Positions 1,931-59,282 of a stretch of DNA of 64,000 nucleotides are shown one piece after another. Source of the DNA: an uncultured Gammaproteobacteria bacterium (lineage in GTDB: Bacteria > Patescibacteriota > Microgenomatia > UBA1406 > HO2-37-13b); NCBI GenBank assembly GCA_964413645.1, contig CAYPSA010000004.1:25765-89764 (forward strand). The letters are read 5' to 3'. The notes below the pieces were generated by a model, which saw only the letters and a list, made by a program, of their open reading frames with translations, made no database searches and was not told where the DNA came from. The stretch's first letter is position 1. Every line of letters starts with the position of its first letter. The position numbers were made by a program, and so were the translations under genes.

Positions 1931-2055
1931 TGCCCTGGCGATAACCCATTTTCCCCTGCGCATAAAGCACTGAGTATCGTAGGCGCATTTTCGTTTCATG
2001 ACTCTGTTCGAGATGAGAAGAGATGGTTCCAAAAATGCCAGAAATCACCAAGGCA
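1931..2055 (-). rRNA. rrf: 5S ribosomal RNA
   Basis: Minus-strand RNA reads GCCUUGGUGAUUUCUGGC...CUCGAACAGAGUCAUGAAAC...GCGCCUACGAUACUCAG...UAUCGCCAGGGC. The two ends pair over 9 bp (helix I), and the internal blocks match the bacterial 5S pattern (CCGAAC.., GCGCC.A.GGUA-like). Confidence 0.8.
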
Positions 2056-6855: not shown

Positions 6856-6856
6856 C

Positions 6857-11991: not shown

Positions 11992-12228
11992 ATGAAACAT
12001 ATATTAATATATCTTATTCGCACATACCAAAAATTTCCAATTTTAGACAATCCTATTTCACATGCACTCTTGGGGCCATCGTCAGTATGCCGATACTCTC
12101 CCCGATGCTCGGATTATACAATTGATGCTCTTCAAAAATATGGTGTTTCCCGCGGTTCTTGGCTTGCTGTAAAACGAATAGCACGATGTAACCCATACGC
12201 CAAAGGTGGATTTGACCCAGTTCAGTGA
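11992..12228 (+). CDS. yidD: membrane protein insertion efficiency factor YidD
   Basis: 78 aa with the conserved CRY.PSCS.Y-like core ([19 protein letters not shown]) and C-terminal [13 protein letters not shown]. Confidence 0.85.
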
Positions 12229-12712: not shown

Positions 12713-13107
12713 GGGGATGAACGGTATCGACGGGAGGATCGCACGTTTACAAATCGCCAGGTCGGAGCTATTCGTTAAATAGCATACTAAATGCAGATAA
12801 CAAGTCTGTAGGTTCTTACGGTTACGGTTATGCATTTGCATAAACTTAATTGCTAAGACCCGTTTTCTTTCACGTTTTACTCTGTGTTTTACAGAAAGAA
12901 GGCGCCAACCAATACAGGGTGCGTAGTGTGTGGGTTTTAAAGCTAGTTTACTACACGCTTCAAAGATCTTATCGCAAGACAAGAACAAACAATTGTCGCT
13001 TTTTAAAATTGTTGATTATATAAAAAGCGTATAAATCATCTACACCTGGCTACACGATTGTAAAATTGCCCTTTCGGACCCGGGTTCAACTCCCGGCATC
13101 TCCACCA
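12713..13107 (+). ncRNA. ssrA: tmRNA (transfer-messenger RNA)
   Basis: The 5' end GGGGAUGAACGGUAUCGACGGG and the 3' end GGACCCGGGUUCAACUCCCGGCAUCUCCACCA form the tRNA-like domain. The internal tag frame gca gat aac aag tct gta ggt tct tac ggt tac ggt tat gca ttt gca taa gives ADNKSVGSYGYGYAFA*. Confidence 0.9.
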
Positions 13108-21671: not shown

Positions 21672-21742
21672 CGGGGAGTAGTATAATGGTAGAATGCGCC
21701 GCTGGGGGTGGTGCGGTCCGGGTTCAATTCCCGGCTCCCCGA
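21672..21742 (+). tRNA. tRNA-Pro (anticodon GGG)
   Basis: Acceptor CGGGGAG/CUCCCCG with C1:G72 and A73 (the bacterial Pro pattern). Anticodon stem CGCCG/UGGUG and loop CUGGGGG. T arm CCGGG-UUCAAUU-CCCGG. No encoded CCA. Confidence 0.8.
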
Positions 21743-21758
21743 CACGAAAGACGGGTCA

Positions 21759-25623: not shown

Positions 25624-26415
25624 ATGGAACCCCATCCGGTACCTCGACAGATTACTACATTTGAGTTCAAATTAATTGGGTTTATGACCTTAAAAGAGTT
25701 TGCGTATATGATTGTGTTTGCAGGCTTGGCGACAATTACATATTTTTTGACACCGGGGGAACTGTTTAAATATATAGGCGCCGCGATAGTTTTTGCCATT
25801 GGAATCTTTTTAGCTTTTTACAAATATAATGAACGGTCAGTAGACGTGTGGATTCGTAATTTAGTACTTAAGATGTTTTCATCGTCGCAGTACTATTACC
25901 ATAAGAAAAACGATCCTCCTTCATTCTTAGAAAACATTATTTACGATAAAAATATTGCGGTTTTGCACGCAGATGCGCAGAAGAAGCTAACGAGCTATTT
26001 GGGAAAAGTTGAGAAAGCTCCTGTCGTAGGGACAAAGGTTGAAATGGCGCCCCCTACTCCAGTAGACACTGTTGAAACAGAGCCAGTTCAGACTCCCACT
26101 CCTATCGATACTTCTCCTCCTGAGCCAGTAGTGGAGACACTCGTCTCCGAACACCCGGCGCTCTCCGGAATTGTAAAAAACGGCAAAGATTTACCTATCC
26201 CAAATATTTTGGTGTATGTGAAAAATAAAGAAGGTCAAGTTGCGCGGATTCTTAAAACAGACAATCATGGTGTGTTTTCGACCACAAAACCCCTCGGAAG
26301 CGACCAGATTATTCTTGAACCCAAAGATAGCGCGAATCGATTCTTTTTTGATACACTGAATATTAATCCGGGTGCCGGTACGCCCCTTGTTATTCGTTCC
26401 CGAGAGGCATTGTAG
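25624..26415 (+). CDS. PrgI/VirB3-like T4SS membrane protein with C-terminal carboxypeptidase-regulatory-like beta domain
   Basis: The N-terminus VPRQITTFEFKLIGFMTLKEFAYMIVFAGLATITYFL matches the PrgI-family pattern. A Pro/Thr/Val linker follows, then GIVKNGKDLPIPNILVYVKNKEGQVARILKTDNHGVF. Confidence 0.55.
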   Translation: MEPHPVPRQITTFEFKLIGFMTLKEFAYMIVFAGLATITYFLTPGELFKYIGAAIVFAIGIFLAFYKYNERSVDVWIRNLVLKMFSSSQYYYHKKNDPPSFLENIIYDKNIAVLHADAQKKLTSYLGKVEKAPVVGTKVEMAPPTPVDTVETEPVQTPTPIDTSPPEPVVETLVSEHPALSGIVKNGKDLPIPNILVYVKNKEGQVARILKTDNHGVFSTTKPLGSDQIILEPKDSANRFFFDTLNINPGAGTPLVIRSREAL

Positions 26416-26423
26416 CCACATAT

Positions 26424-27077
26424 ATGACTATTCGAAAACCAACAAGCCCCGTAAAATCATCTACACAAGACTTCATCGAAATCGAAGCGGTATTTGAAGA
26501 TGTGGTTATGATGAAAGATTATTCGTGCGCCATTTTAATAGAGGCAGGAACAACAAACTTCGGCCTCCTTTCAGAAGAAGAGCAACAGGCATTAATATAC
26601 TCTTATGCTTCGCTATTAAATTCTCTATCATTCCCTGTTCAAATTTCAATCATTTCCAAACGAATGGATATTTCATCGTACCTGAGCTACTTAGAAGAAA
26701 AATTGGAGTCTCAAAAAGATGAAACGCTTCGCAAGCGACTAATAACATACACGGAGTTCATTAAAAACATGGTGAAAAAAAGTACAATTTTGGAAAAGAA
26801 CTTTTATTTTGTAATTCCATTCTCCCCGCTTGAGCTTGGACTTTCATCAAATACAAAGAGGAAGCTAGAAAAAGACTATGTATTTACCCGAGCAAAAACA
26901 GCGCTATATCCCAAGCGCGATCATTTATTGCGACTGTTAAAAAAAGCGGGTCTTGGAGGAAGGGCATTGTATGAGCAAGAAGTTTCTGAGATTTTTTATA
27001 ACCTATACAATCCTTCAGCGACTGGCCGAAAACTTTCTGCAATTAAAAGTTACACCGACATTATTTTAACGTCATGA
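26424..27077 (+). CDS. VirB4/TrbE-type N-terminal domain encoded as a separate ORF
   Basis: TQDFIEIEAVFEDVVMMKDYSCAILIEAGTTNFGLLSEEEQQALIYSYASLLNSLSFPVQISIISKRMD follows the pattern of the N-terminal region of Gram-positive VirB4 homologues. Overlaps the next ORF by ATGA. Confidence 0.55.
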   Translation: MTIRKPTSPVKSSTQDFIEIEAVFEDVVMMKDYSCAILIEAGTTNFGLLSEEEQQALIYSYASLLNSLSFPVQISIISKRMDISSYLSYLEEKLESQKDETLRKRLITYTEFIKNMVKKSTILEKNFYFVIPFSPLELGLSSNTKRKLEKDYVFTRAKTALYPKRDHLLRLLKKAGLGGRALYEQEVSEIFYNLYNPSATGRKLSAIKSYTDIILTS

Positions 27078-28780
27078 AAAACTTAGCGAGTACGTTATTA
27101 ATGCCAGGAGCCGTGTCGCTTAAAGATATTGTTGCGCCTTCATTTGTAGAGGTCGATTTTAACAATATTAAAATTGATGAAAAGTTTTATCGAACGCTAT
27201 TCGTTGTCGGTTACCCTCGATTCGTGGCTCCAAACTGGCTCTCATCGCTCATAGCTTTTGATCACCCACTTTATGTTTCCATGTTCATTTATCCAAATGA
27301 GTCCAAAGATATCTTGAAAGACTTGCGTAGAAAAGTCGCTGAAATGGAAGCAACCATTGATTCAGATATTAAGGCTGGGAAAGTTGTAGATCCTTCCGTT
27401 CAGGTAGCGCTTGATGATGCACTTATGCTTCAAAATGAACTTGCCGCCGGAAGTGAGCGCTTTTTTCAGTTCGGGTTGTATGTAACAATTCCAGCCGACA
27501 CCAAGATCGAACTTGATCGAATTACTAAGGAAGTTGAATCTTCTCTGTCGTCGCTCCTTATTGTCGCAAAAACCGCCACGCTTGAAATGGAAGAAGGATT
27601 CAAATCTACTCTACCTTTGTTCTTAGATAAATTGCGTATTTGGAGAAATATGGACACTACATCACTCGCTACGTCGTTTCCGTTTGTAACTTCAAGCCTT
27701 ACTCAAAACGAAGGAATTATGTATGGGGTAAATGAGCACGATGGTAGTTTGGTAATTTTTGATCGGTTCTCACTTGAAAGTGCAAACTCTATTATCTTGG
27801 GAAAGTCAGGAGGAGGAAAAAGCTTTTTGGTTAAATTAGAAGCACTTCGCTTACTCCTTATGGGAACTGACGTTATTATTATCGATCCAGAAAACGAGTA
27901 TGAAAAGCTAACCACAGCCGTAGGCGGTGAATTTGCTTCATTTTCAATCTCATCGACATTCAAAATCAATCCATTCGACCTTGGCAGCGATGATCAAGAG
28001 CCCGATGAGCTAGCAAACAAAATTCAAAGCCTCCATTCACTTATGCGTGTAGTAATGGGCGATCTTACGCCTGCACAAGACGCACTTTTAGATCGTTCGC
28101 TCGTTACTACCTATGCTCAGAAGGGAATAACGCAAGACGTCACCACCCACAAAAAGGAACCACCTCTTATGGAAGATCTTTATAAAGTTCTTTTGGGAAC
28201 CGAAACTGCCGAAGGCGCAGAATTAGCTGCTCGTCTAGAGAAATTCATTAAAGGGTCTGCGAGTGGAATTTTTAATCAGCAATCAAATTTTGATATTAAG
28301 AATAAATTTACCGTGTTTGGTGTGCGTGATTTAGAAGAGAACCTTCGACCGATTGCCATGTATATTATTCTTGATTTCGTATGGAGTAGAATTCGAAAAG
28401 ACAAAAGAAAGAGAGTACTCGTTGTTGACGAGGCATGGTACCTTATAAAACACAAAGACTCTGCAGCATTCTTATTTAGTCTCGCCAAACGTGCGCGAAA
28501 ATATCAACTCGGACTCACTACCATTACTCAAGACGTGGAGGATTTCTTGAGCGTTGAAGAGGGTCGGGCTATATTGACTAACTCAAGCCTTCAAATACTG
28601 TTAAAACAAAGCACAGCAGCAATAGACCGGGTCGCAGATACTTTCAACCTAACCGCCGGAGAAAAACACTTTTTACTATCTGGTGGCGTAGGAGAAGGTC
28701 TCTTTTTTGCAGGATCTTCGCATGTAGGTATTAAAATCTTAGCTTCCGAAGAAGAAAATGCAACAATTTCGCAATCGTAG
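27074..28780 (+). CDS. virB4: VirB4-like T4SS ATPase (middle and ATPase domains)
   Basis: Walker A GKSGGGKSFLVK, Walker B VLVVDEAWYL, and TTITQDVEDF. The N-terminal YRTLFVVGYPRFVAPNWLSSL is typical of VirB4. Confidence 0.8.
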   Translation: MKNLASTLLMPGAVSLKDIVAPSFVEVDFNNIKIDEKFYRTLFVVGYPRFVAPNWLSSLIAFDHPLYVSMFIYPNESKDILKDLRRKVAEMEATIDSDIKAGKVVDPSVQVALDDALMLQNELAAGSERFFQFGLYVTIPADTKIELDRITKEVESSLSSLLIVAKTATLEMEEGFKSTLPLFLDKLRIWRNMDTTSLATSFPFVTSSLTQNEGIMYGVNEHDGSLVIFDRFSLESANSIILGKSGGGKSFLVKLEALRLLLMGTDVIIIDPENEYEKLTTAVGGEFASFSISSTFKINPFDLGSDDQEPDELANKIQSLHSLMRVVMGDLTPAQDALLDRSLVTTYAQKGITQDVTTHKKEPPLMEDLYKVLLGTETAEGAELAARLEKFIKGSASGIFNQQSNFDIKNKFTVFGVRDLEENLRPIAMYIILDFVWSRIRKDKRKRVLVVDEAWYLIKHKDSAAFLFSLAKRARKYQLGLTTITQDVEDFLSVEEGRAILTNSSLQILLKQSTAAIDRVADTFNLTAGEKHFLLSGGVGEGLFFAGSSHVGIKILASEEENATISQS

Positions 28781-29881
28781 CTATTCTGTTTCCTCGATCC
28801 GAATAGGCATTACAATGTGAATAAAGTCATTATTTCCCTCGATCTTAAACACCCCAGGAGCCGTTGGTGACGAAGATTCAAAAATCACCGATTCGGTATC
28901 GATAGCATTTAGAAACTCTAAAATAAATCTAAAATTAAATGCAACCCGCGTGTCTTCACCCTCATATGTTTGAATGTCCTGAAATATCACGGTCCCATCA
29001 CGTTCTACCCCACGTGGAACCAAATGCATTCCAGCTTTTTTAATCTCCAAAATTGCTGTGCTTGAAATATCGCGAGCAAATACCGAAACAAGTTTCACGT
29101 TTCGTAAAAATTCTTCTCGATTTACAATAATCCTCGTACGATGTTCCTGGGGAATTACGCGCGCAAATGGAGGGAATTCACCGTCAATAAGGCGTGAAAA
29201 AATCGTTGTGTCACCGTTTACAAACTTTACAAATTTTTCAGTCTCAGAAATTACTAATGAGAGCTGTTTTTTTCCAAACAATCTTAATACTTCTTCCAAG
29301 ATCGAGGCAGAAATTGTAAATGCAGCAAATTCTCCTTCGTGCTTGCCCGAAACGAGTGATAGTCTAAATCCATCGGTAGCAGATATATAGAGTGTGTTTG
29401 CTTTGCATGAAAAATTAACACCCGTCAAAATCGGTCGGGCTAGATCTTTAGAAGCTGCAAGTAATACAAGCGGGAGATCTTTAAGCATTTTCTCTTTAAA
29501 TTCAATTGCTTCTCCTTCAAATGCTGGTAGTGCTGGATAGTCGGTGGCAGAAATTACGGGGAATGTTCCCTTTGTTTTATCGGTTTCAATAAGTACGGTA
29601 CTCGCCGTTGATGAAAGAGTAACATCGCCGGGTTTCAAATAACTTAGAAAATCCACGATGTGTCGGATATCACAAACACCTTCTCCTTCTTCAATTACCG
29701 TCGCTTTAATCTTTGTATAAAAGAAGTCGTTTAGATTTGTAGCAATGATTTCGATATGTCCATCCTTTACTCTGAGCAATCCTCCTTGTAATGAAGATAG
29801 TGATGATGTTCGAGATACACAAAACTTTGTTGCAGTTACCAACGCATCCTTTAATTGTGTGTTTGGAATGGTTACTTTCAT
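28781..29881 (-). CDS. dnaN: DNA polymerase III beta sliding clamp
   Basis: 366 aa three-domain clamp pattern, immediately downstream of dnaA. Confidence 0.9.
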   Translation of the reverse strand: MKVTIPNTQLKDALVTATKFCVSRTSSLSSLQGGLLRVKDGHIEIIATNLNDFFYTKIKATVIEEGEGVCDIRHIVDFLSYLKPGDVTLSSTASTVLIETDKTKGTFPVISATDYPALPAFEGEAIEFKEKMLKDLPLVLLAASKDLARPILTGVNFSCKANTLYISATDGFRLSLVSGKHEGEFAAFTISASILEEVLRLFGKKQLSLVISETEKFVKFVNGDTTIFSRLIDGEFPPFARVIPQEHRTRIIVNREEFLRNVKLVSVFARDISSTAILEIKKAGMHLVPRGVERDGTVIFQDIQTYEGEDTRVAFNFRFILEFLNAIDTESVIFESSSPTAPGVFKIEGNNDFIHIVMPIRIEETE

Positions 29882-32432: not shown

Positions 32433-32436
32433 ATTG

Positions 32437-32510
32437 TGGACCGGAGGGGACTTGAACCCCTGACCCCTTCACTGCCAGCGAAGTGCTCTAGCCAACTGAG
32501 CTACCGGCCC
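32437..32510 (-). tRNA. tRNA-Ala (anticodon GGC)
   Basis: Revcomp is GGGCCGGUAGCUCAGUUGGCUAGAGCACUUCGCUGGCAGUGAAGGGGUCAGGGGUUCAAGUCCCCUCCGGUCCA. It has the G3:U70 identity pair and anticodon loop CUGGCAG. No encoded CCA. Confidence 0.9.
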
Positions 32511-32542
32511 AACAGGCTTATTATACCAAGTAGAAATACTAT

Positions 32543-40853: not shown

Positions 40854-40909
40854 CGTCATTCTGAACCGTAGGTGAACCCGCCAGCCGGCAGGCATGGTAC
40901 TCAGAATGA
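40854..40909. repeat. full-length GTCATYC-family element with 10-bp terminal inverted repeats
   Basis: gtcattctga (40854-40863) ... cccgccagccggcagg ... tcagaatgac (40900-40909). Confidence 0.85.
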
Positions 40910-40941
40910 CAACGATATTGCTCCTCCTGTATAATACTCTC

Positions 40942-41562
40942 ATGGATTCCTACATTATCGATACTAATTTTTTCTTCAATCTTGAAGTAAAAACGGGATT
41001 TGGTTCTACTGCTCACGAGGTAATTACCAATTTCACTGAGCTTGCAAAAAAACTTAAAGCCGAAAAAAAGGCAGAATTTTTTATGCCTGCAAGTGTGGCG
41101 CGTGAAACAAGTGAGTTTACCAGTAATACTGCGACTGAAGAAGACATTAAAACGCTTCTTGCCTGCATTACAATTAAATCCCCCGATGTTTCCAAAGTGG
41201 AATTTCCCGCGACTATTTTTTACACCATGGTTGATGAAATTCGCACACGTTCGTATCGAGGCTTAACAGTTGCTCAAGAACAAGTTGAAGCAGGCGCTCA
41301 GCTCATGTCGAGCAAAACGTTTGAGAATAAAATTGAATATCAAAAAGGACTCGGAGATGTTATTACTAAGCTTCGTGATCGGTACCGTCAGGCTACCCGG
41401 TTTAACTTTCTCGATAGCGTTGCAGACCTTGATCTTATCGTGCTTTCAAAAGAGCTTGATGGATATCTTGTTTCAGCTGACGAAGGAGTTCTTCGTTGGG
41501 GACGAATGTTTGGAATTAAAGAAGTTCCCGCAGAATTACTTCTAAGCAAAATCTCTCATTAA
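40942..41562 (+). CDS. PIN_5-type protein resembling HARP (RNA-free RNase P, Aq_880/MJ_0950 RNA-ligase-partner family)
   Basis: MDSYIIDTNFF, AEFFMPASVARE, IKSPD...FPATIFYTMVDEIRTRSYRGL, LRDRYRQA...FLDSVADLDLIVLSKELDGYLVSADEGVLRWGRMFGIK. This matches my recollection of conserved blocks of the Aquifex Aq_880 family. TGTATAAT lies 6 nt before the ATG. Confidence 0.6.
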   Translation: MDSYIIDTNFFFNLEVKTGFGSTAHEVITNFTELAKKLKAEKKAEFFMPASVARETSEFTSNTATEEDIKTLLACITIKSPDVSKVEFPATIFYTMVDEIRTRSYRGLTVAQEQVEAGAQLMSSKTFENKIEYQKGLGDVITKLRDRYRQATRFNFLDSVADLDLIVLSKELDGYLVSADEGVLRWGRMFGIKEVPAELLLSKISH

Positions 41563-41589: not shown

Positions 41590-42081
41590 TCACTCGTTTG
41601 GCATAAGTCTCGATAAAGCTCCAATCATTTTATCGGTTAGTGTTTTTCGAGGATGTTCTTGGTACACCAAATAATCCGACAGTATCTCAATTACTTGGTC
41701 TCGAATTTCTTCGTTGGGCACAACAAAGTATATGTGGTATGAGAGCGGTGGGTGGGAAACTACTACCAACATGTAATAGTCAAACTGCTTAGTAATATAA
41801 AAGTATGATAGGTGGTCAAATCGAAATGTTTTACTATCAGCGGTAAGTCCAAACTTTGTAATGCTATTCTTTACCGCTGGAGGTTTGGTGATTGTAAGCG
41901 TGTAAAACAAAAAGAGCATTGCCCATATGGGTAGCACGAGAATTTTTTCACCCCAGAAGAAAACAATTAACGAAAGTAATAAGGCAAGCGCTAGGTAAAA
42001 CCGCAATACCCCTTTAGACTCATTTTTGTATGCTCGTAATGGAGCTTCCCATGAAAAGATTGTTTGTGGATTTGAATACAT
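41590..42081 (-). CDS. hypothetical membrane protein
   Basis: Two TM helices (LRFYLALALLLSLIVFFWG, LVLPIWAMLFLFYTL) followed by a soluble domain. The ATG at 42081 is preferred over the long track ORF. Confidence 0.45.
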   Translation of the reverse strand: MYSNPQTIFSWEAPLRAYKNESKGVLRFYLALALLLSLIVFFWGEKILVLPIWAMLFLFYTLTITKPPAVKNSITKFGLTADSKTFRFDHLSYFYITKQFDYYMLVVVSHPPLSYHIYFVVPNEEIRDQVIEILSDYLVYQEHPRKTLTDKMIGALSRLMPNE

Positions 42082-42295
42082 ATTCTCATTTTCTCCAATT
42101 GAGCAAGCATTGTCAATTGAAGAAATTCTTTCATACTGTACAAGTTTTTTCACGCAAATGACATAAAATTTCTTTCTATTTTTTCCTAGGCACACCCAAA
42201 AATGTTTGATATAGTTTGAATATAATTTGATCCGTTGACAGGGGCTAATTAGTGTAATAAAGTGTTACTTGACACTAGATAAGAAGGAACAAGGT

Positions 42296-42742
42296 ATGCA
42301 ATGTATTTTTTGCCAAAACACTAACACAGACGTTGTAGAGACACGAGTATCAAGCGAAGGAATAACGATTCGACGACGACGAGCTTGCCCAAAGTGCGAC
42401 AAACGCTTTACCACATATGAGCGAGTAGAGGAATTACCGGTTGTTGTGATAAAGCGCGATGGAAAACGTGAGCGGTTTGATCGAAATAAATTACGCCAAG
42501 GTATTTTAAAATCGATTGAAAAGACGCCGGTAACTCAAGAGCAAGTAGAAGACATTATTTCATCAATCGAAATGGATTTGAAGCAAGAAGCGTCAACTGA
42601 AGTATCTAGTAGTACCGTTGGTAAGCTAGCAGCAAAAAAACTAAAAAAAATCGACAAAATTGCGTACATTCGCTTTGCATCGGTATTTTGGAGGTTTTTA
42701 GATGTGCATGATTTTGAGCGAGAGATTAAAAAATTACTGTAA
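42296..42742 (+). CDS. nrdR: transcriptional repressor NrdR
   Basis: MQCIFCQNTNTDVVETR...CPKCDKRFTTYE zinc ribbon plus an ATP-cone (VVIKRDGKRERFDRNKL). Confidence 0.9.
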   Translation: MQCIFCQNTNTDVVETRVSSEGITIRRRRACPKCDKRFTTYERVEELPVVVIKRDGKRERFDRNKLRQGILKSIEKTPVTQEQVEDIISSIEMDLKQEASTEVSSSTVGKLAAKKLKKIDKIAYIRFASVFWRFLDVHDFEREIKKLL

Positions 42743-42753
42743 AACATAAAAAA

Positions 42754-44034
42754 ATGGAAATAAAAAAAATTCAAAAACGCGACGGTAGTATTGTAGATCA
42801 CAACCCCGGAAAGATTGTCAAGGCGATTCAGCTAGCAATGAAAGCAGCCAAGAATGGAAATAAGGAAAACGCAGAATACGTAGCTAATAAAGTGGAAAAA
42901 GCGCTTTCCAAAATGGAAAAAGCAGCAAAGAAAAAGCCATACGTTCCAAATGTAGAAGATGTTCAGGATATTGTTGAAGGAATGTTAATGGAAACAGGTT
43001 TTCATGACGTTGCAAAAGTATATATATTGTACCGAGAGAAGAAGCGACAAGAAAGAAGACGCGATATTTTCAAAAAACGCATTAATTTAAAACCCTATGA
43101 ATATCCGGAACTTGCCGAATATGTTAATGCTATCCGTCATTCATATTGGTTGCACACGGAATTTAATTATACAAGCGATGTGCAGGATTTTAAGGTTAAT
43201 GTAACTCCATCGGAACGCAATGCGCTAAAAAATACCATGCTTGCGATTTCACAAATCGAAGTTGCGGTTAAAATGTTCTGGGCCGACATATATAAGCGTT
43301 TGCCAAAGCCCGAAATTGGGTCTGTTGGCGTTACCTTCGCAGAGAGTGAAGTACGACATCATGATGCCTATTCACATCTGCTTGAGCTCTTAGGACTTAA
43401 TAACGAATTCGAAAGGATTTTTGATATTCCAGTAATTAATAATCGTGTTCGATATTTAAACAACGCGCTTGAAACTGCAAAAAGCGAAGATAATCGAGAC
43501 TATACCCGTTCTATTCTTCTATTTTCACTCTTTATTGAGCACGTTTCGCTTTTTTCACAGTTTCTTATTATTATGTCGTTTAACAAGTATAAGAATCTAT
43601 TCAAGGGAATTTCCAATGCTGTTGAAGCCACATCAAAAGAAGAACAGATTCATGGGCTTTTTGGCATAGATTTAATTAAAATCATCAAACACGAAAATCC
43701 CGATTGGTTTGATGAACAATTGACGCAAGACATTTATACTGCGTGTAAAGAAGCATACGAAGGAGAAGAACAGGTAATTGAGTGGATTTTTGAAAAAGGT
43801 GAATTTGATTTCCTTCCCAAAGACCAAATCAAAGAATTCATTAAAAACCGACTTAACAACTCGCTTGTGAGTATTGGAATGAAGAGAATCTTTACGGTTG
43901 ATGACAAGCTTTTAGAAAAAACAGAATGGTTTAACGACGAGATTATTGCAACCAAACATAATGACTTTTTTAACAAGCGCTCGATAAACTACAACAAACG
44001 AAGCAAAAGCGTTACGGGAGACGATTTATTTTAA
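42754..44034 (+). CDS. nrdB: ribonucleotide reductase small (radical-generating) subunit with N-terminal ATP-cone
   Basis: Residues 1-95 form an ATP-cone (IQKRDGSIVDHNPGKIVKAI...VEDVQDIVEGML...VAKVYILYREKK). A ferritin-like R2 core follows, with AESEVRHHDAYSHLLE (E-x-x-H...Y) and a later EEQIHG. Confidence 0.8.
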   Translation: MEIKKIQKRDGSIVDHNPGKIVKAIQLAMKAAKNGNKENAEYVANKVEKALSKMEKAAKKKPYVPNVEDVQDIVEGMLMETGFHDVAKVYILYREKKRQERRRDIFKKRINLKPYEYPELAEYVNAIRHSYWLHTEFNYTSDVQDFKVNVTPSERNALKNTMLAISQIEVAVKMFWADIYKRLPKPEIGSVGVTFAESEVRHHDAYSHLLELLGLNNEFERIFDIPVINNRVRYLNNALETAKSEDNRDYTRSILLFSLFIEHVSLFSQFLIIMSFNKYKNLFKGISNAVEATSKEEQIHGLFGIDLIKIIKHENPDWFDEQLTQDIYTACKEAYEGEEQVIEWIFEKGEFDFLPKDQIKEFIKNRLNNSLVSIGMKRIFTVDDKLLEKTEWFNDEIIATKHNDFFNKRSINYNKRSKSVTGDDLF

Positions 44035-44052
44035 TTATTAATTTCAAAATCT

Positions 44053-45747
44053 ATGAAACAACAAGCACCCGCTATGGAATGGTTGAATGAGAACAGTCGC
44101 AAATTTTTAAGTCGAGGATATTTGACCGAAGGAGTGACGCCAGAAGAGCGGATCATGTTTATTGCAAAAACAGCAGAAAAAATCTTAAAGAAAAAAGGCT
44201 TTGCAGATAAATTCTATGGCTACATGGCAAAGGGGTATTATTCTCTATCAACTCCAGTGTGGGCGAATTTTGGTTTAAAAAAAGGACTACCAATAAGTTG
44301 CTTCTCATCTCATATTAGTGATAACATGGCTGACATTTTATTTACTCATGCAGAAATTGGAATGTTCAGTAAATATGGCGGTGGAACGGCGGGTTATTTT
44401 GGTGATCTTCGCGGCCGAGGAACCGACATTACGAATAACGGAGTGTCATCGGGAGCTGTGCATTTTATGCAATTGTTTGAAACGCTTGTTGACGTAGTCA
44501 GCCAAGGCTCTACGCGACGTGGACATTTTTCGCCATATTTACCAATTGAACACCCAGACATCGAAGAATTTCTTGAAATTGGAACTGAAGGGAATTCAAT
44601 TCAAAAGTTAACCCACGGAGTAACGGTTACAGATAAGTGGATGCAAGAAATGATTGATGGAGACGCGAAAAAACGCAAAACCTGGGCAAAAGTAATTCAA
44701 AGTCGTGTGGAAATGGGATATCCATACATCTTTTTTACAGACAACGTAAATAATGGTACGGTTGATGTATATAAAGATAAAAAATTGCCTATTCGTCACA
44801 GCAACATGTGTTCTGAAATTGTGCTTCCAACCAACGAGGAATGGTCGTTTGTGTGTGACCTTTCATCGATGAATTTACTTCATTATGACGAGTGGAAAGA
44901 AACCGATGCAGTGCAAACCATGGTGTATTTCCTTGACGCGGTTATGGAAGAGTTTATTCAAAAGCTTGAAGAGCTCCGCGACAGTAAAGACAGAAGTAAG
45001 CAAGAGGCATTTTATTTTATGCAAAAAGCTCATCGATTTGCCGTTGCTAATCGTGCAATTGGATTGGGTGTACTCGGATACCACTCATATCTACAATCAA
45101 AGATGATTGCTTTTGAAAGCAAGGAAGCCAAAAAAGCCAACATACAAATATTTAAATTCATTAAAGAAAAGTCGTACGAAGCATCTGCTCAGCTTGCCAA
45201 AGAGCTTGGAGAGCCATCACTTTTGAAAGGCTATGGTCGACGCAATACAACGCTTAATGCGATTGCCCCAACCACATCGTCCGCCTTTATTTTAGGCCAA
45301 GTTTCCCAAAGTATTGAGCCGGTGTTGTCAAATTGTTACGTAAAAGATTTGGCAAAAATGAAGACAACCATTAAAAATCCATTCCTTGAAAAATTACTTA
45401 AAGAAAAGGGGAAGAATACTAAGGAAGTGTGGGAATCTATTCGAAGTAAAGATGGATCGGTGCAACATTTGTCGTTTTTGTCTGATGCGGAGAAAGAGGT
45501 ATTTAAAACGTTCTCGGAAATTGATCAGATTGCGATTATTGATCAGGCGGCCACACGCCAGCAATACATTGATCAAGCCCAATCGCTTAATCTCATGATC
45601 AACCCAAGCGTTCCTACAAAGGACATCAATGCCTTGTACATTTTCGCATGGCAGGCAAAAATTAAAACACTGTACTATCAACACAGTACCAACGCCGCAC
45701 AACAGTTTAATCAATCCAAGATGTGTGTCGATGGATGTGAAGCGTAA
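44053..45747 (+). CDS. nrdA: ribonucleotide reductase large subunit (short form, no ATP-cone)
   Basis: 564 aa with the NMCSEI active-site Cys-Glu region, PTTSSAFI, and a C-terminal Cys pair CVDGC. Confidence 0.8.
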   Translation: MKQQAPAMEWLNENSRKFLSRGYLTEGVTPEERIMFIAKTAEKILKKKGFADKFYGYMAKGYYSLSTPVWANFGLKKGLPISCFSSHISDNMADILFTHAEIGMFSKYGGGTAGYFGDLRGRGTDITNNGVSSGAVHFMQLFETLVDVVSQGSTRRGHFSPYLPIEHPDIEEFLEIGTEGNSIQKLTHGVTVTDKWMQEMIDGDAKKRKTWAKVIQSRVEMGYPYIFFTDNVNNGTVDVYKDKKLPIRHSNMCSEIVLPTNEEWSFVCDLSSMNLLHYDEWKETDAVQTMVYFLDAVMEEFIQKLEELRDSKDRSKQEAFYFMQKAHRFAVANRAIGLGVLGYHSYLQSKMIAFESKEAKKANIQIFKFIKEKSYEASAQLAKELGEPSLLKGYGRRNTTLNAIAPTTSSAFILGQVSQSIEPVLSNCYVKDLAKMKTTIKNPFLEKLLKEKGKNTKEVWESIRSKDGSVQHLSFLSDAEKEVFKTFSEIDQIAIIDQAATRQQYIDQAQSLNLMINPSVPTKDINALYIFAWQAKIKTLYYQHSTNAAQQFNQSKMCVDGCEA

Positions 45748-48931: not shown

Positions 48932-49023
48932 ATAGTCCTGTAGTATACCATATTCAACTAACTATGTCAAATTCCCTCAAATTACCCATTGACAACTTAT
49001 TATTTTTATCTATACTGTTAATT

Positions 49024-49506
49024 ATGGAAGTAATTAGCACTGTCGGAGAAAAACTATTTCATCTTGTAAACGCCCCTTTTGTTAAGGTTGCTCAAGCGAC
49101 AAATCATTTGCCTCCATGTGGAACTATTCAAGTTAACGAAGGGACACTCGGTTTTGTAATTCCAAACTTCGGAGAAATGCTTACCTTTTTAGTTAAGGGA
49201 TTTTTTGTTATCGCTGGTCTTGCAGCATTAGTTATGCTCCTTTGGGGTGCACTTGAATGGGTCCTTTCAGGTGGCGATAAGGAAAAGGTTGAAGGTGCTC
49301 GTGACCGAATCACTGCTGCAATCATTGGTGTTTTTATGATTCTTGTTGCGCTGGCAATCATCTGGACTCTAGAAAATATCGTATTCCAGAAGACAATATG
49401 TTTCGGTCTTTCATGCCCAGTCAGCTTGCCAACACTACTTAAGAAAACAACAGGCCCAACACCACCTCCAGATTGCTTGACTCCGACTGCTATTCCAAGA
49501 CCGTAG
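49024..49506 (+). CDS. T4SS pilin-like (TrbC/VirB2-type) membrane protein, paralog 1
   Basis: Two TM helices flank a GG(D/E)xEK...A..R loop (LVMLLWGALEWVLSGGDKEKVEGARDRITAAIIGVFMILVALAII). Promoter TTGACA (48989-48994), 16 nt, TATACT (49011-49016), 7 nt, ATG. Confidence 0.6.
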   Translation: MEVISTVGEKLFHLVNAPFVKVAQATNHLPPCGTIQVNEGTLGFVIPNFGEMLTFLVKGFFVIAGLAALVMLLWGALEWVLSGGDKEKVEGARDRITAAIIGVFMILVALAIIWTLENIVFQKTICFGLSCPVSLPTLLKKTTGPTPPPDCLTPTAIPRP

Positions 49507-49565
49507 TGTCGAATTTTATTAATTAATCCTCTTGCTTTATTTCTTTTTTAGTTTTACCATTAAGC

Positions 49566-50171
49566 ATGGATGTTCAAGTAAACGAAAGCACTCTCGGATT
49601 TCAAATTCCTACCTTCGGAGAAATGTTAACGTTCATGGTTAAGGGATTTTTCGTGGTTGCAGGAATTGCCGCGCTCGTTATGCTTCTGTGGGGTGCACTT
49701 GCATGGGTTCTTTCCGGAGGAGACAAAGAGAAAGTCGAAGCTGCTCGCGATCGAATGACCGCGGCAATCATTGGGGTTTTTATGATTCTTGTAGCGCTTT
49801 CTATTGTTTGGACTCTTGAACAAATAGTGTTTCAAAAGACAGTCTGTTTTGGACTTTCGTGTCCTGTCTCGATTCCTACGCTTCTCAAGTCGTCTAAAAG
49901 TGGAGGAGCTGGAGGATCGGGTGGATCCGGAGGTTCAACCGGTGGATCAAGCACGTCATCGCATATTTTTGCTCGACCAACAACCACCTCAGGAACTGGT
50001 ACTAATGGAGGAAGCACTAATGGATCCGCAACGAGTGGTTCTGGTTCGCAGACTAGTACTTCTGGGACAAACAGTGCTAATGGAGCAGCGACCAGCTCCA
50101 AAACTAGTACGCAAGGTGGAACAAATCCTTCCCCTACAGGATTGCAAAAACTCCCCGGGACTGGACTCTAA
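49566..50171 (+). CDS. T4SS pilin-like protein, paralog 2, with long Gly/Ser/Thr-rich tail
   Basis: The core is highly similar to paralog 1 (high identity by eye over the shared ~105-residue core). The tail is SGGAGGSGGSGGSTGGSS...TSGTNSANGAATSS and ends in KLPGTGL. Confidence 0.6.
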   Translation: MDVQVNESTLGFQIPTFGEMLTFMVKGFFVVAGIAALVMLLWGALAWVLSGGDKEKVEAARDRMTAAIIGVFMILVALSIVWTLEQIVFQKTVCFGLSCPVSIPTLLKSSKSGGAGGSGGSGGSTGGSSTSSHIFARPTTTSGTGTNGGSTNGSATSGSGSQTSTSGTNSANGAATSSKTSTQGGTNPSPTGLQKLPGTGL

Positions 50172-50201
50172 AAACTTCTAAAAAATTGGTATACTGATCG
50201 T

Positions 50202-50660
50202 ATGTTATCGTTCTTTGTGAATGCTCAAATTGCTTCTCTCTCGAATAGTGCTTGTGTTGTCGATGGTGTCGTTACTATTAGGTGTGCGGAAGTCATTTTC
50301 GAGCGACTACTTACCATATCATCATCGCTTGTATTATTAGTTTTATTTATCATGCTTATTGTCGGTGCGTTTAAGTATATTACTTCGGGAGGAGAAGCGG
50401 AAAAGCTTGCGGGTGCACAGAATACACTTAAGTTTGCCTTTATTGGAACATTTCTATTTTTGGGCTCCTATTTGTTCCTTACTATTCTTCAAACGCTTTT
50501 CTTGGGTGGTAAAAACAATACGCAATTTAATTTATTCAAGTTTTCGATTCCTGAATATGGAGTTTCCCCTATGCCAACTCCAACTCCAAGACGACGTTTC
50601 GAAAGAATGACACCAATCCCAACTATTGATTCTCGCAGGCCAAGGCCCACAGCTATTTGA
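50202..50660 (+). CDS. T4SS pilin-like protein, paralog 3
   Basis: LVLLVLFIMLIVGAFKYITSGGEAEKLAGAQNTLKFAFIGTFLFLGSYLFL has the same TM-GGExEK-TM layout. Pro/Arg-rich tail. TGGTATACT lies 6 nt before the ATG. Confidence 0.55.
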   Translation: MLSFFVNAQIASLSNSACVVDGVVTIRCAEVIFERLLTISSSLVLLVLFIMLIVGAFKYITSGGEAEKLAGAQNTLKFAFIGTFLFLGSYLFLTILQTLFLGGKNNTQFNLFKFSIPEYGVSPMPTPTPRRRFERMTPIPTIDSRRPRPTAI

Positions 50661-51783: not shown

Positions 51784-51812
51784 TTGCTATATATCTTTGT
51801 GCGTAGTATAAT
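51784..51812 (+). promoter_or_regulatory. sigma-70-type promoter for the tRNA
   Basis: TTGCTA (51784-51789), 17 nt, TATAAT (51807-51812), about 9 nt before the tRNA 5' end. Confidence 0.6.
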
Positions 51813-51821
51813 AAACCGTAT

Positions 51822-51892
51822 AGCGGGGTAGTGTAAGGCCGCACAGGAGGCTCATAATCTCCTAGGCCGTGGTTCGATTCCCGGCCCCGCAA
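51822..51892 (+). tRNA. tRNA with CAU anticodon (elongator Met or Ile2)
   Basis: D stem GUGU/GCAC. Anticodon stem GGAGG/UCUCC with loop CUCAUAA. T loop UUCGAUU. The T stem needs a bulged U (CCGUGG/CCCGG) and position 1:72 is A:A in the best fold. The GGG/CCC initiator signature is absent. Confidence 0.65.
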
Positions 51893-51903
51893 CATATATA
51901 AAA

Positions 51904-56942: not shown

Positions 56943-59282
56943 ATGGATGATGTAACCGGCAGAATCGTACTCTCTATACTTGTAATATTCACGTTTATAT
57001 TCGCTGCTTTATTGACTGTTGGCATCTTTTACCTATATGTCATGTACGTACGGCTTAAAAAGCGAGAAAAGGCCTCTTTGGACATGGTTACGATGGAAGT
57101 TCGGGTTCCAAAAGATAATGAAATCAAAATAGATGCTGCTGAACAGATGTTTTCAGGGTTTTCTGGACTTGCAACGCATGGGTTTTGGCATTTTTTTGAA
57201 GTTTCAGACACGATTGCATTTGAGATTGTTGCCAAAGAAGCTGAAATCCGGTTTTATGTTACTGCTCCATCAAAGCTCCGTGATTTAGTTGAAAAACAGA
57301 TTTATGGATATTATTCTGCGGCCGATATTAAGCTAGTTGACGAGCCACACGTGTTTACTGAAGATGGTGCGGTAGCCTGGGCAGAGCTTCGACAAAAAAA
57401 GGATGAATTTAAGCCAATTAAAACATACAAAGAGCTTCCCACCGACCCATTGTCGGGAATAACGTCTGCTCTTTCGAAGATGGGTGTAGGTGAAGGAGCT
57501 GTGCTGCAAATTCTTATTCGTCCAATCAATAGTCATTGGAAACATAAGGGAAAAGAATATATTTCTGGTACAAAAAAGAAAGAAGCAACCCCCGATGAGG
57601 CAAGTTTTAGCGTAGATGCAAAAACACTTGAGAAAATTGATGAAAAAGTTTCGCGATCGGGTTTTGAAACGGCAATTCGCATTGTTGTGTCATCAAAAAA
57701 TAAAGACATGGCAGATTTACATTTGAAAAATATCAAATCGTCTTTTTCACAATTTACATCTGACTTAAATAACTTTGGATCTGCTAACATGCTTTTCAAA
57801 AGCAGCTTTATGTTGAATTTTATTTATAAATTTTTCCCCGTGTTTAATTTACCCATTTATAAGACAACGTCTATCCTTTCGACCGATGAACTGGCGAGTA
57901 TTTTCCATTTCCCAAATAAAACAATAGAAACACCGCATATTAAATGGTTAAAAGCGAAAACTGCTCCAGTGGCCGCAGAGGTTCCTCAGAGTGGCGGAAC
58001 AAGTATTGGAATGGGACAATATCGAGGTGTTCGACGACCGATTCATATTCAGCTCGTCGATCGTCGCAGACACACGTATATTATCGGAAAAACAGGTACT
58101 GGAAAATCACAACTGCTTTTGGAAATGGCCCGACAAGATATTGTTGCGGGTCATGGTGTTTGCGTCATTGATCCGCATGGAGATTTGATTGAGGATATTA
58201 TTAAGCACATTCCTCCTTCACGAGCCGAGGATATTATTTATTTCGATCCTTCCGATGGGGAACGGCCCATGGGGCTTAACTTGCTCGACGCTCGGACCGA
58301 GGAAGAGCAGCATTTTATTACATCTGCAATTATTAACTTGATGTATAAATTGTACGATCCACAGAGAACGGGAATTATTGGTCCACGATTTGAACACGCG
58401 GTTCGTAATGCAATGCTTACGGTTATGGTCGATCCTGGTGCTACGTTTATTGAGGTCGTTCGAGTGCTGACGGATCAAAAATATGTGCAGGAACTCCTGC
58501 CAAAAGTAAAAGATCCTATTATTCGTCGATACTGGACTGATCAAATCGCTCAAACGTCAGACTTCCATAAGTCCGAAGTTCTTGATTATATCGTTTCAAA
58601 ATTTGGTCGATTTGTTACCAACAAAACAATGCGAAATATTATTGGGCAATCAAATTCCGCATTTAATTTCCGAGAAGTTATGGATGAAGGAAAGGTGCTT
58701 CTTATTAATCTTTCCAAAGGAAAATTGGGAGAAGAAAATTCTAACTTCTTAGGTCTTGTTTTGGTCCCAAAAATATTGGTTGCGGCAATGAGCCGACAAG
58801 ATATTCCAGAAGAAAAACGCCGAGATTTTTTCTTGTACGTCGACGAGTTTCAAAATTTTGCAACGCCAGATTTTGCGACAATTCTTTCAGAGGCTCGAAA
58901 ATATCGATTATCGCTTACCGTAGCAAATCAGTTCATCGGACAAATGGATGAAGAAGTCAAAAATGCTGTTTTTGGAAACGTAGGAACCTTGATGTGTTTC
59001 CGTGTTGGTGTAACGGATGCTTCATATATGTCACATGAATTCCAACCTATTTTTAGTGAATCAGATTTAATTAACATTGATCGATTTAATGCATACATGA
59101 AAACAATCGTTGATAATGAACCAGTTCCTCCATTCTCGGTCGACACAACAAAAGATATGACCGAGCTTAATGCAGCAGCAAATCCAAAAGTTGCTGATGC
59201 TATAATTCAGCTATCACGACTTAAATATGGCCGACCTCGTGAACTTGTTGAGGCCGAAATTATTCAACGCTCCAAACTATGA
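56943..59282 (+). CDS. T4SS coupling-protein-like (TraD/VirD4/TcpA-type) ATPase
   Basis: N-terminal TM (IVLSILVIFTFIFAALLTVGIFYLYVMY), Walker A GKTGTGKSQLL, Walker B FFLYVDEFQNF, and LTVANQF. TATAAT lies 6 nt before the ATG. Confidence 0.7.
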   Translation: MDDVTGRIVLSILVIFTFIFAALLTVGIFYLYVMYVRLKKREKASLDMVTMEVRVPKDNEIKIDAAEQMFSGFSGLATHGFWHFFEVSDTIAFEIVAKEAEIRFYVTAPSKLRDLVEKQIYGYYSAADIKLVDEPHVFTEDGAVAWAELRQKKDEFKPIKTYKELPTDPLSGITSALSKMGVGEGAVLQILIRPINSHWKHKGKEYISGTKKKEATPDEASFSVDAKTLEKIDEKVSRSGFETAIRIVVSSKNKDMADLHLKNIKSSFSQFTSDLNNFGSANMLFKSSFMLNFIYKFFPVFNLPIYKTTSILSTDELASIFHFPNKTIETPHIKWLKAKTAPVAAEVPQSGGTSIGMGQYRGVRRPIHIQLVDRRRHTYIIGKTGTGKSQLLLEMARQDIVAGHGVCVIDPHGDLIEDIIKHIPPSRAEDIIYFDPSDGERPMGLNLLDARTEEEQHFITSAIINLMYKLYDPQRTGIIGPRFEHAVRNAMLTVMVDPGATFIEVVRVLTDQKYVQELLPKVKDPIIRRYWTDQIAQTSDFHKSEVLDYIVSKFGRFVTNKTMRNIIGQSNSAFNFREVMDEGKVLLINLSKGKLGEENSNFLGLVLVPKILVAAMSRQDIPEEKRRDFFLYVDEFQNFATPDFATILSEARKYRLSLTVANQFIGQMDEEVKNAVFGNVGTLMCFRVGVTDASYMSHEFQPIFSESDLINIDRFNAYMKTIVDNEPVPPFSVDTTKDMTELNAAANPKVADAIIQLSRLKYGRPRELVEAEIIQRSKL

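Follow-up and report, generated by a model that had tools for sequence, protein, structure and literature searches.

A HARP-family (RNA-free RNase P) gene with a variant active site and a convergent membrane-protein neighbour in Roizmanbacteria of the Candidate Phyla Radiation

The bacterial ribonucleoprotein (RNP) form of RNase P is a ribozyme, the rnpB RNA, assisted by a protein cofactor, RnpA (PF00825), whereas HARP is an unrelated protein-only nuclease of the PIN-domain type. The closest described HARP systems are those of Aquifex aeolicus (Aq_880) and Hydrogenobacter thermophilus (PDB 7f3e, 8kd9, 8kda, 8ssf), and in the Aquificaceae the status of HARP as sole RNase P has been proven. Here we describe a HARP gene at positions 40942-41562 of a 64-kb stretch (the window) of contig CAYPSA010000004.1, which derives from a bacterium of the Candidate Phyla Radiation (CPR). 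The presumed reaction is that of the RNP enzyme, and the gene belongs to the same Pfam and TIGRFAM family as the Aquifex and Hydrogenobacter proteins. We judge it somewhat probable that the CPR protein is the principal RNase P of its cell and possibly the only one. Sole-enzyme status, proven for the Aquificaceae, is a candidate property only for the CPR HARP.

HARPs have been reported from Aquificae, Nitrospirae, Thermodesulfobacteria, some Proteobacteria, Verrucomicrobia and Planctomycetes (PMC6380272, PMC10941002), as well as from "a few unclassified bacteria", some of which have HARP only (PMC6380272, PMC10941002; Daniels et al. 2019). A 2025 survey of more than 1 million genomes counted 178 bacterial HARP instances and stressed extreme habitats and a linkage to the RNA ligase Rnl3, which was found within 5 kb in 80% of the ligase-positive bacterial HARP genomes. 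The ligase beside HARP usually lies on the opposite strand, being convergent in the survey rows available and divergent in the Halogeometricum locus. A second PIN-like metallonuclease with a two-metal mechanism is the eukaryotic PRORP, of whose four active-site Asp residues three superpose on residues of HARP. PRORP differs in being a 60-kDa monomer with pentatricopeptide-repeat and zinc-binding domains rather than a 23-kDa oligomer, and the two are of independent origin.

That the window protein belongs to the HARP family is as certain as an analysis of sequences can make it. The original prediction, made from the letters of the DNA, had placed the product in the HARP (Aq_880-like PIN_5, "RNA ligase partner") family and had proposed two profile searches as a check. 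Both gave scores well above the curated cut-offs: 155.6 bits against a cut-off of 27 for Pfam PIN_5 (PF08745; E = 1.5e-45, residues 4-202 of 206) and 161.1 bits against a cut-off of 95.3 for NCBIfam "RNA ligase partner protein" (TIGR03875; E = 2.2e-47). When PDB sequences were searched with phmmer, the only matches were chains named "RNA-free ribonuclease P" (E = 1e-27 to 1e-22) from Thermococcus celer, Planctomycetes bacterium GWF2_40_8, Hydrogenobacter, Aquifex and Halorhodospira. The T. celer protein (7e8j, E = 8.6e-27) was marginally ahead of that from GWF2_40_8 (7e8k, 7e8o, E = 2.3e-26). Identity to the Aquifex and Hydrogenobacter proteins was about 30-32%. An AlphaFold2 model built from a 121-sequence alignment (mean predicted local distance difference test score, pLDDT, of 94.4) gave a predicted PIN-like core from which two long helices, residues 90-124 and 130-153, protrude. 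The top 34 matches of the model in a Foldseek search of the PDB were all HARP chains, that of GWF2_40_8 being first, and the pre-tRNA-bound Aquifex and Hydrogenobacter dodecamers superposed with template modelling (TM) scores of 0.79-0.91 and root-mean-square deviations of 2.0-2.8 Å (TM 0.82-0.91 when the four PDB entries cited above are taken together). VapC-like PIN proteins appeared only at E > 5e-3 with TM scores of about 0.4. Profiles, residue mapping and predicted fold thus support the family assignment. The 206-residue open reading frame (ORF) was recovered with the same boundaries, and the sequence blocks on which the prediction had been based (IIDTN, AEFFMPxSVxxE, the Arg-rich helix LRDRYRQATR, and LDSVADLD...LVSADEG...W) are all present and conserved. 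The automatic NCBI name of the CPR proteins is "RNA ligase partner protein", because they belong to the same family as the haloarchaeal and euryarchaeal HARPs that have an Rnl3 partner.

The residues that serve catalysis and RNA binding in HARPs (roles in PMC12217051, PMC8266387) were located by alignment to A. aeolicus HARP (AaHARP), the C-terminal half being offset by +20. The AaHARP catalytic residues D7, D138, S139, D142 and D160 correspond to D7, D158, S159, D162 and D180 of the window protein. The AaHARP arginines R94, R125, R129 and R133, mutation of which abolishes binding or activity (PMC12217051), correspond to R101 or R103, R145, R149 and R153. Among 121 CPR homologues of the window protein, D158, S159, D162, D180 and the four arginine equivalents are invariant (121/121), and position 7 is Asp in all but one (120/121). 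The HARP catalytic aspartates, whose loss on alignment the original prediction had named as a point to be watched for, are therefore conserved. The CPR protein shares this whole set of residues with the Aquifex and Hydrogenobacter enzymes.

A mode of action can be proposed from what is described for the enzymes of A. aeolicus and H. thermophilus. The CPR protein would be a HARP-type PIN-domain metallonuclease acting as a homo-oligomer, an assembly that in HARPs ranges from tetramer to dodecamer and on which activity depends. The hairpin arginines of one dimer (R145 and R149) would hold the T-loop/elbow of the tRNA, while the two-metal site of a neighbouring dimer (D7, D158, S159, D162 and D180) would receive the phosphodiester between nucleotides -1 and +1, and the 5′ leader would be removed. 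In the Roizmanbacteria lineage HARP behaves as a core housekeeping gene.

The host is a member of the Roizmanbacteria, a CPR group; those homologues that carry a name belong to Candidatus Roizmanbacteria or to the "Patescibacteria group". At least 173 GTDB species-representative genomes encode a HARP relative, one genome per GTDB species having been scanned. The best 80 of these 173, at 44-95% identity, are all from Roizmanbacteria, Microgenomates or Patescibacteria metagenome-assembled genomes (MAGs). Loci of ±10 kb around HARP from these 80 (L002-L081) served for comparison, and the closest relatives among them are CAYQYZ010000002.1 (95%) and the Roizmanbacteria MAG JAYPGZ010000008.1 (89%). 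Single-contig genomes of the HARP-positive set measure 1.23, 1.22, 0.94 and 0.80 Mb (CAWJTN010000001.1, MGBH01000001.1, OZ246401.1 and CAZLGV010000001.1, respectively). The same strain as that of the window was found in runs SRR8893623 and SRR8893624. Dozens of third-party annotation MAG records titled "uncultured Gammaproteobacteria bacterium" (for example L003, L004 and L005) are Roizmanbacteria-like CPR by gene content and synteny, and their titles are placeholders or mislabels.

By dN/dS the gene is under strong purifying selection: the ratio against the two closest genomes was 0.02-0.04, the same as that of dnaA, although dS is near saturation and the values are approximate. HARP gave no phage matches, and its only plasmid matches were haloarchaeal megaplasmid HARPs of about 30% identity. 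The gene is not mobile.

The family is a known one. A literature search found no connection between HARP or RNase P and Roizmanbacteria, CPR or Patescibacteria, and no CPR or Patescibacteria genome is entered in the HARP genome table of the 2025 survey. One earlier report may nevertheless have met the gene without recognizing it as HARP. Chen et al. 2019 (PMC6509639) described self-targeting CRISPR spacers in hot-spring Roizmanbacteria that match a "PINc domain ribonuclease", and this target is probably the HARP gene, because "PINc domain ribonuclease" is the Pfam description of PF08745. The CPR clade variant, with its mesophilic hosts, replacement of Glu141 by Ala, longer hairpin, lack of a nearby ligase, obligatory neighbour having two transmembrane helices and dnaA-proximal position, is not described in the literature searched.

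The HARP gene has a near-consensus promoter-like site of its own (Table 1). An ATG at 40894 would allow a longer ORF, a start that we disfavoured because homologues begin MxxYIxDT and because the near-consensus promoter ends 6 nt before the ATG at 40942. There is no Shine-Dalgarno sequence upstream of the HARP ATG and, because the -10 box found by the consensus scan ends only 6 nt before it, the HARP mRNA is probably leaderless. The next gene upstream encodes a UbiA-family prenyltransferase. Downstream lies TM201, a convergent gene that also has a promoter-like site and no upstream Shine-Dalgarno sequence. Its -10 box stops 6 nt short of the ATG at 42081, the same spacing as for HARP, which suggests that both genes give leaderless mRNAs.

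The pairing of HARP with TM201 is strict. The two stop codons are 27 bp apart in the window, and in many relatives the 3′ ends overlap. TM201 adjoins HARP in convergent orientation in all 80 GTDB loci, which had been picked via HARP. As a reciprocal sample, 80 Joint Genome Institute (JGI) metagenome loci (L093-L172) were picked via TM201 alone. In 77 of these HARP lies convergent beside TM201, with a median gap of 32 nt, and the other three contigs end there. Hence the pair is found at 157 of 157 loci where it could be sought, and TM201 is an obligatory convergent neighbour of HARP in the clade. The TM201 protein matched no Pfam, NCBIfam or PDB family, and its single-sequence AlphaFold2 model was poor (pLDDT 58). 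A bPH-like reading of TM201 (two transmembrane helices, beta strands and a helix; DUF5673, E = 0.075) is no more than a guess.

A tightly linked neighbour gene is typical of both the CPR HARPs and the haloarchaeal and euryarchaeal HARPs of the same family. The neighbours themselves differ, that of the haloarchaea being a 375-aa RNA ligase in genomes where HARP is dispensable beside the RNP enzyme, and that of the CPR clade an unrelated 163-aa membrane protein. No Rnl3 ligase was detected by a Pfam scan of the whole window or by tblastn with H. borinquense Rnl3 on the window plus 160 CPR loci (the 80 GTDB and 80 metagenome loci, which extend ±6-10 kb around HARP and total about 2 Mb of HARP-linked sequence), the sensitivity of tblastn being limited at such a distance. 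A similar difference separates the clade from the Planctomycetes, the HARP genomes of which have a convergent Rnl3 ligase in the 2025 survey, whereas none was found nearby in the CPR clade. TM201 occupies, in the CPR clade, the place held by the Rnl3 ligase beside other HARPs.

HARPs fall within the VapC-like branch of PIN domains, and a small, tightly linked neighbour gene could recall a toxin-antitoxin pair in which HARP would be a VapC-like toxin or the cargo of a mobile element. The particulars of the locus argue otherwise. TM201 is a 163-aa membrane protein, convergent and with its own promoter-like site, rather than an upstream co-transcribed antitoxin, whereas VapC toxins have their partner antitoxin in an operon. 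VapC proteins share only a distant PIN core (the Foldseek values given above) and lack the protruding helical hairpin. Together with the lack of phage matches, plasmid matches that are confined to the haloarchaeal megaplasmids, a stable chromosomal position and purifying selection, these points effectively refute the toxin and cargo readings.

The chromosomal position of HARP is the second unusual feature of the locus. In the window dnaA lies about 9.5 kb from HARP, and in both samples dnaA was found within 10 kb in 43 of 80 loci. HARP directly adjoins dnaA or dnaN in about half of the 160 loci. In eight relatives (L019, L022, L024, L026, L027, L050, L056 and L061, an example being the 1.23-Mb genome CAWJTN010000001.1) dnaA is divergent from HARP with only 28-94 bp between the genes, and about 24 loci have the order dnaA-dnaN-HARP on one strand. 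The cumulative GC-skew minimum of the window falls at about 40-42 kb, and near 38.9 kb the prevailing orientation of the genes changes from minus to plus. The replication origin may be situated no more than 2-3 kb from HARP, at a distance of about 8-10 kb from dnaA.

The CPR contig L084, an outgroup the YidD and DnaA of which are 47% and 39% identical to the window proteins, shows the classical arrangement. Its gene order is virB4-like, recF, dnaN, dnaA and then rpmH-rnpA-yidD-yidC-jag-rnhA, the rpmH-to-jag block being at 5581..7421, and its RnpA is closest to those of Saccharimonadales and Woykebacteria. A preprint reports that rnpA and rpmH are common in the virB4/dnaA neighbourhood of CPR. 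About half of the HARP loci share the dnaA neighbourhood of the L084 rpmH-rnpA genes, and by gene order the dnaA-proximal slot of rpmH-rnpA holds the HARP-TM201 pair in the HARP clade.

We then asked what the available sequence holds of the RNP enzyme. For the same genome about 10 kb past the right end of the window (L087) could also be read. No RNase P RNA was found in the 64-kb window either at Rfam gathering scores or at E ≤ 1, as the original prediction had stated, nor in 144 kb of further loci made up of the 10 kb past the right end and six long-contig loci. RnpA was missing from the window when all called ORFs were scanned with Pfam and when six-frame ORFs were scanned with a CPR RnpA profile, and the 10 kb past the right end did not contain it either. 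Over the window and the 160 HARP loci, rpmH, rnpA, yidC and jag were not found by tblastn or with the profile, which was built from 72 CPR RnpA sequences. RnpA queries from E. coli, B. subtilis and T. maritima gave chance matches only. A crude paired P4-motif scan for rnpB over the 2 Mb of loci, run with no positive control, gave no match. When the L084 RnpA was used as query, a word-indexed database yielded 2 proteins and an exhaustive search 71, the named ones being from Saccharimonadales and Woykebacteria and none from Roizmanbacteria. Most of the clusters are nameless, which makes this result uninformative. A YidD homologue search gave 20 matches, the distant ones from unrelated Gram-negative bacteria, and offered no route to the rpmH or yidC of the clade.

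That neither rnpA nor rnpB was found within the genomic window recalls the Aquificaceae. The remnants of the RNP gene cluster differ in that Aquifex retains rpmH-yidD-yidC, whereas in the CPR window yidD lies beside trmD and smpB. The original prediction had drawn attention to this yidD, which indeed has no rnpA before it, being flanked by opposite-strand trmD and by smpB-ssrA. It had also noted three tRNA genes without encoded CCA, which was borne out (the letters that follow are CAC, CAA and ACA). As clues to a sole enzyme these observations are weak, because yidD without rnpA is specific to the sub-lineage, missing CCA is common in CPR (16 of 19 tRNA genes of the window and its relatives lack it), and 64 kb is too small a part of a genome of about 1 Mb to tell much.

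The grounds for taking HARP as most likely the principal RNase P are its presence in every relative examined, its place near the origin, the strong purifying selection on it and a near-consensus promoter-like site of its own. That it is the sole RNase P is a possibility that falls a little short of probable, with circumstantial support from the conservation across the clade, the purifying selection and the dnaA-proximal slot that rpmH-rnpA fills in L084. Several lines of evidence weigh against these readings, and the first concern the enzyme at large. In most of the bacteria and in all of the archaea that carry HARP the RNP enzyme is present too, and several recombinant bacterial HARPs were inactive on pre-tRNA. 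Moreover, RNase P RNA was reported in all 35 circularized CPR genomes of Lui et al. 2021 (PMC8172020), 11 of which are Microgenomatia. Ten of the 35 were found only after the RF00010 threshold had been lowered to 5 bits, followed by extensive manual refolding. As the RNase P RNAs of CPR may score lower than the Rfam thresholds, our negative Rfam scans are weak evidence, and the share of the genome searched for RNase P parts was only about 7% of about 1 Mb. By the same token, low-score RNase P RNA "rescues" would deserve re-examination in HARP-carrying genomes.

These facts would fit the main rival reading, in which a diverged canonical RNP RNase P (rnpB plus rnpA) is encoded elsewhere in the genome and HARP is an accessory enzyme, serving as a back-up, as a specialist on some of the pre-tRNAs or in the recently described removal of tRNA 3′ trailers. 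We hold this to be possible but less than probable. Co-occurrence of HARP and the RNP enzyme is the rule outside the Aquificaceae and some Nitrospirae, HARPs also cut tRNA 3′ trailers (PMC12217051), and the coverage of 64 kb plus about 10 kb leaves room for RNP genes. However, where both enzymes coexist HARP is dispensable and patchy within genera (9 of 20 Haloarcula genomes), whereas here it is found in 173 species representatives with a dN/dS like that of dnaA. It lies in the dnaA-proximal place of the outgroup rpmH-rnpA, neither of which appeared in about 2 Mb of HARP-linked sequence, and no Rnl3 ligase, a companion of HARP in 89% of HARP genomes, was detected nearby.

The remaining points against HARP as the principal RNase P lie in the protein itself. 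The fifth acidic residue of AaHARP, Glu141, is replaced by Ala161 in the window protein, and among the 121 homologues this column is Ala in 117, Val in two and Thr in two, never Asp or Glu. Every solved HARP, that of GWF2_40_8 included, keeps the [K/R]-E-D motif at this place, and the AaHARP E141Q protein is inactive (PMC12217051). The elbow contacts R102 and R109 are likewise not conserved, being T109 and E116 in the window protein in columns that vary among R/N/K/T/Q and E/D/V/I/N, a mapping made through the H. thermophilus alignment (in which position 109 is Lys) and moved to AaHARP numbering without direct alignment of the region. Compared with the HARPs studied, the helical hairpin has about 11 more residues at its tip. 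By sequence, therefore, the CPR clade is a distinct active-site and hairpin variant of the HARP family. Unlike the Aquifex and Hydrogenobacter enzymes of hyperthermophiles, this variant is found in a mesophilic CPR host and has 206 rather than about 190 residues. The GWF2_40_8 HARP resembles it in coming from a metagenome-derived, non-thermophilic bacterium, but differs in the K-E-D motif.

Such changes might mean that the CPR protein is a HARP-derived nuclease with a changed job, acting on another structured RNA or at the membrane, a notion to which the strict pairing with a protein of two transmembrane helices and the failure of some bacterial HARPs to cleave pre-tRNA in vitro also lend weight. 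We consider it improbable. The other four acidic residues, Ser159 and the R94/R125/R129/R133 equivalents are conserved, and it is the conformers with bound pre-tRNA that the predicted fold matches best. Moreover, the HARPs that were inactive in vitro keep Glu141 (Hhal2243 has REDID), so this residue does not predict activity.

The tRNA genes, the presumed substrates, allow one further possibility to be considered. For two of the window's three tRNA genes a TATAAT box stands exactly 9 nt upstream of the mature 5′ end; this would give leaders of only about 1-3 nt, as if RNase P were not needed because the tRNAs are made leaderless, as in Nanoarchaeum equitans, with HARP a relic. However, across 19 tRNA genes (the window plus L002, L003, L005, L008, L016, L037, L050, L057 and L075) the spacing from the -10 box to the mature 5′ end varies from 9 to 19 nt, or there is no box. 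Leaders would thus be about 2-12 nt, short but variable rather than a fixed leaderless design. Since short leaders exist, some 5′ processing is needed and a Nanoarchaeum-like solution is unlikely. A dN/dS of 0.02-0.04 and invariant catalytic residues are also unlike a relic, and we regard this reading as very improbable.

Taken to its full extent, the reading of HARP as sole RNase P would be that a whole CPR lineage at the level of an order (at least 170 species of Roizmanbacteria-like Microgenomatia, mesophiles of groundwater and sediment) dropped the RNase P ribozyme. Its only RNase P would be a variant HARP that has four carboxylates in the active site and a longer hairpin, that stands beside dnaA in the former rpmH-rnpA place and that works with a dedicated small membrane protein. 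We put this forward tentatively.

Table 1 Coordinates of HARP, its neighbours and related features in the window
Feature	Coordinates	Strand	Remarks
HARP gene	40942..41562	+	206 aa; ATG 40942, TAA ending 41562
HARP promoter-like site, ATGACA-18 nt-TATAAT	40906..40935	+	Putative; consensus scan, 11/12 matches
TM201, convergent partner of HARP	41590..42081	-	163 aa; two predicted transmembrane helices; C-terminal domain of ~95 aa
TM201 promoter-like site, TTGACA-17 nt-GAAAAT	42088..42116	-	Putative; consensus scan, 10/12 matches
dnaA	30010..31446	-	Pfam Bac_DnaA; with dnaN, a marker of the origin region; no rpmH-rnpA beside it
dnaN	28781..29881	-	Pfam DNA_pol3_beta
yidD	11992..12228	+	PF01809, 78.8 bits; between trmD (-) and smpB-ssrA
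tmRNA (ssrA)	12713..13107		
tRNA-Pro(GGG)	21672..21743	+	No encoded CCA; presumed substrate
tRNA-Ala(GGC)	32436..32510	-	No encoded CCA; TATAAT 9 nt upstream of mature 5′ end (32511..32530)
tRNA-Met(CAT)	51822..51893	+	No encoded CCA; TATAAT 9 nt upstream of mature 5′ end (51802..51821)

Several other features of the window were recorded. A 5S rRNA gene (1933..2052, minus strand) has no 23S gene beside it, which fits the unlinked rRNA genes reported for CPR. Type IV secretion-like genes lie around the origin region (25624..28780, 48964..50660 and 56943..59282), as described for Patescibacteria. They comprise PrgI, a VirB4-like ATPase adjoining dnaN/dnaA, three type IV secretion system pilin genes and a TrwB-like coupling protein. 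At 42269..45747 (plus strand) nrdR is followed by a class I-like ribonucleotide reductase, the small subunit of which carries an N-terminal ATP-cone (42754..44034). None of the 80 relatives has a counterpart of this small subunit, and their large subunit is only about 24% identical. AdoCbl-II riboswitches were found in three relatives (L027, 16397..16469; L054, 6226..6296; L081, 14821..14892) and a Cobalamin riboswitch match in a fourth (L049). These observations suggest that the type of ribonucleotide reductase was swapped in the sub-lineage of the window.

RNase P is the textbook surviving ribozyme. Its replacement by a protein is rare, and such cases can teach how RNA catalysts come to be lost, and why. 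In the literature so far, bacterial HARPs belong to few and mostly extremophilic lineages and are tied to an RNA ligase, a picture that a universal HARP in a large, mesophilic and genome-reduced CPR clade would change. If HARP is the sole RNase P there, RNA-based RNase P would have been replaced a second time in Bacteria, on a much larger scale, outside the thermophiles and with a new partner. The finding bears on genome-completeness checks that demand RNase P RNA. With the CPR HARP, nature also supplies an active-site variant (Glu to Ala) on which the mechanism can be studied, and the clade is a natural test of whether small genomes favour a 23-kDa protein solution.

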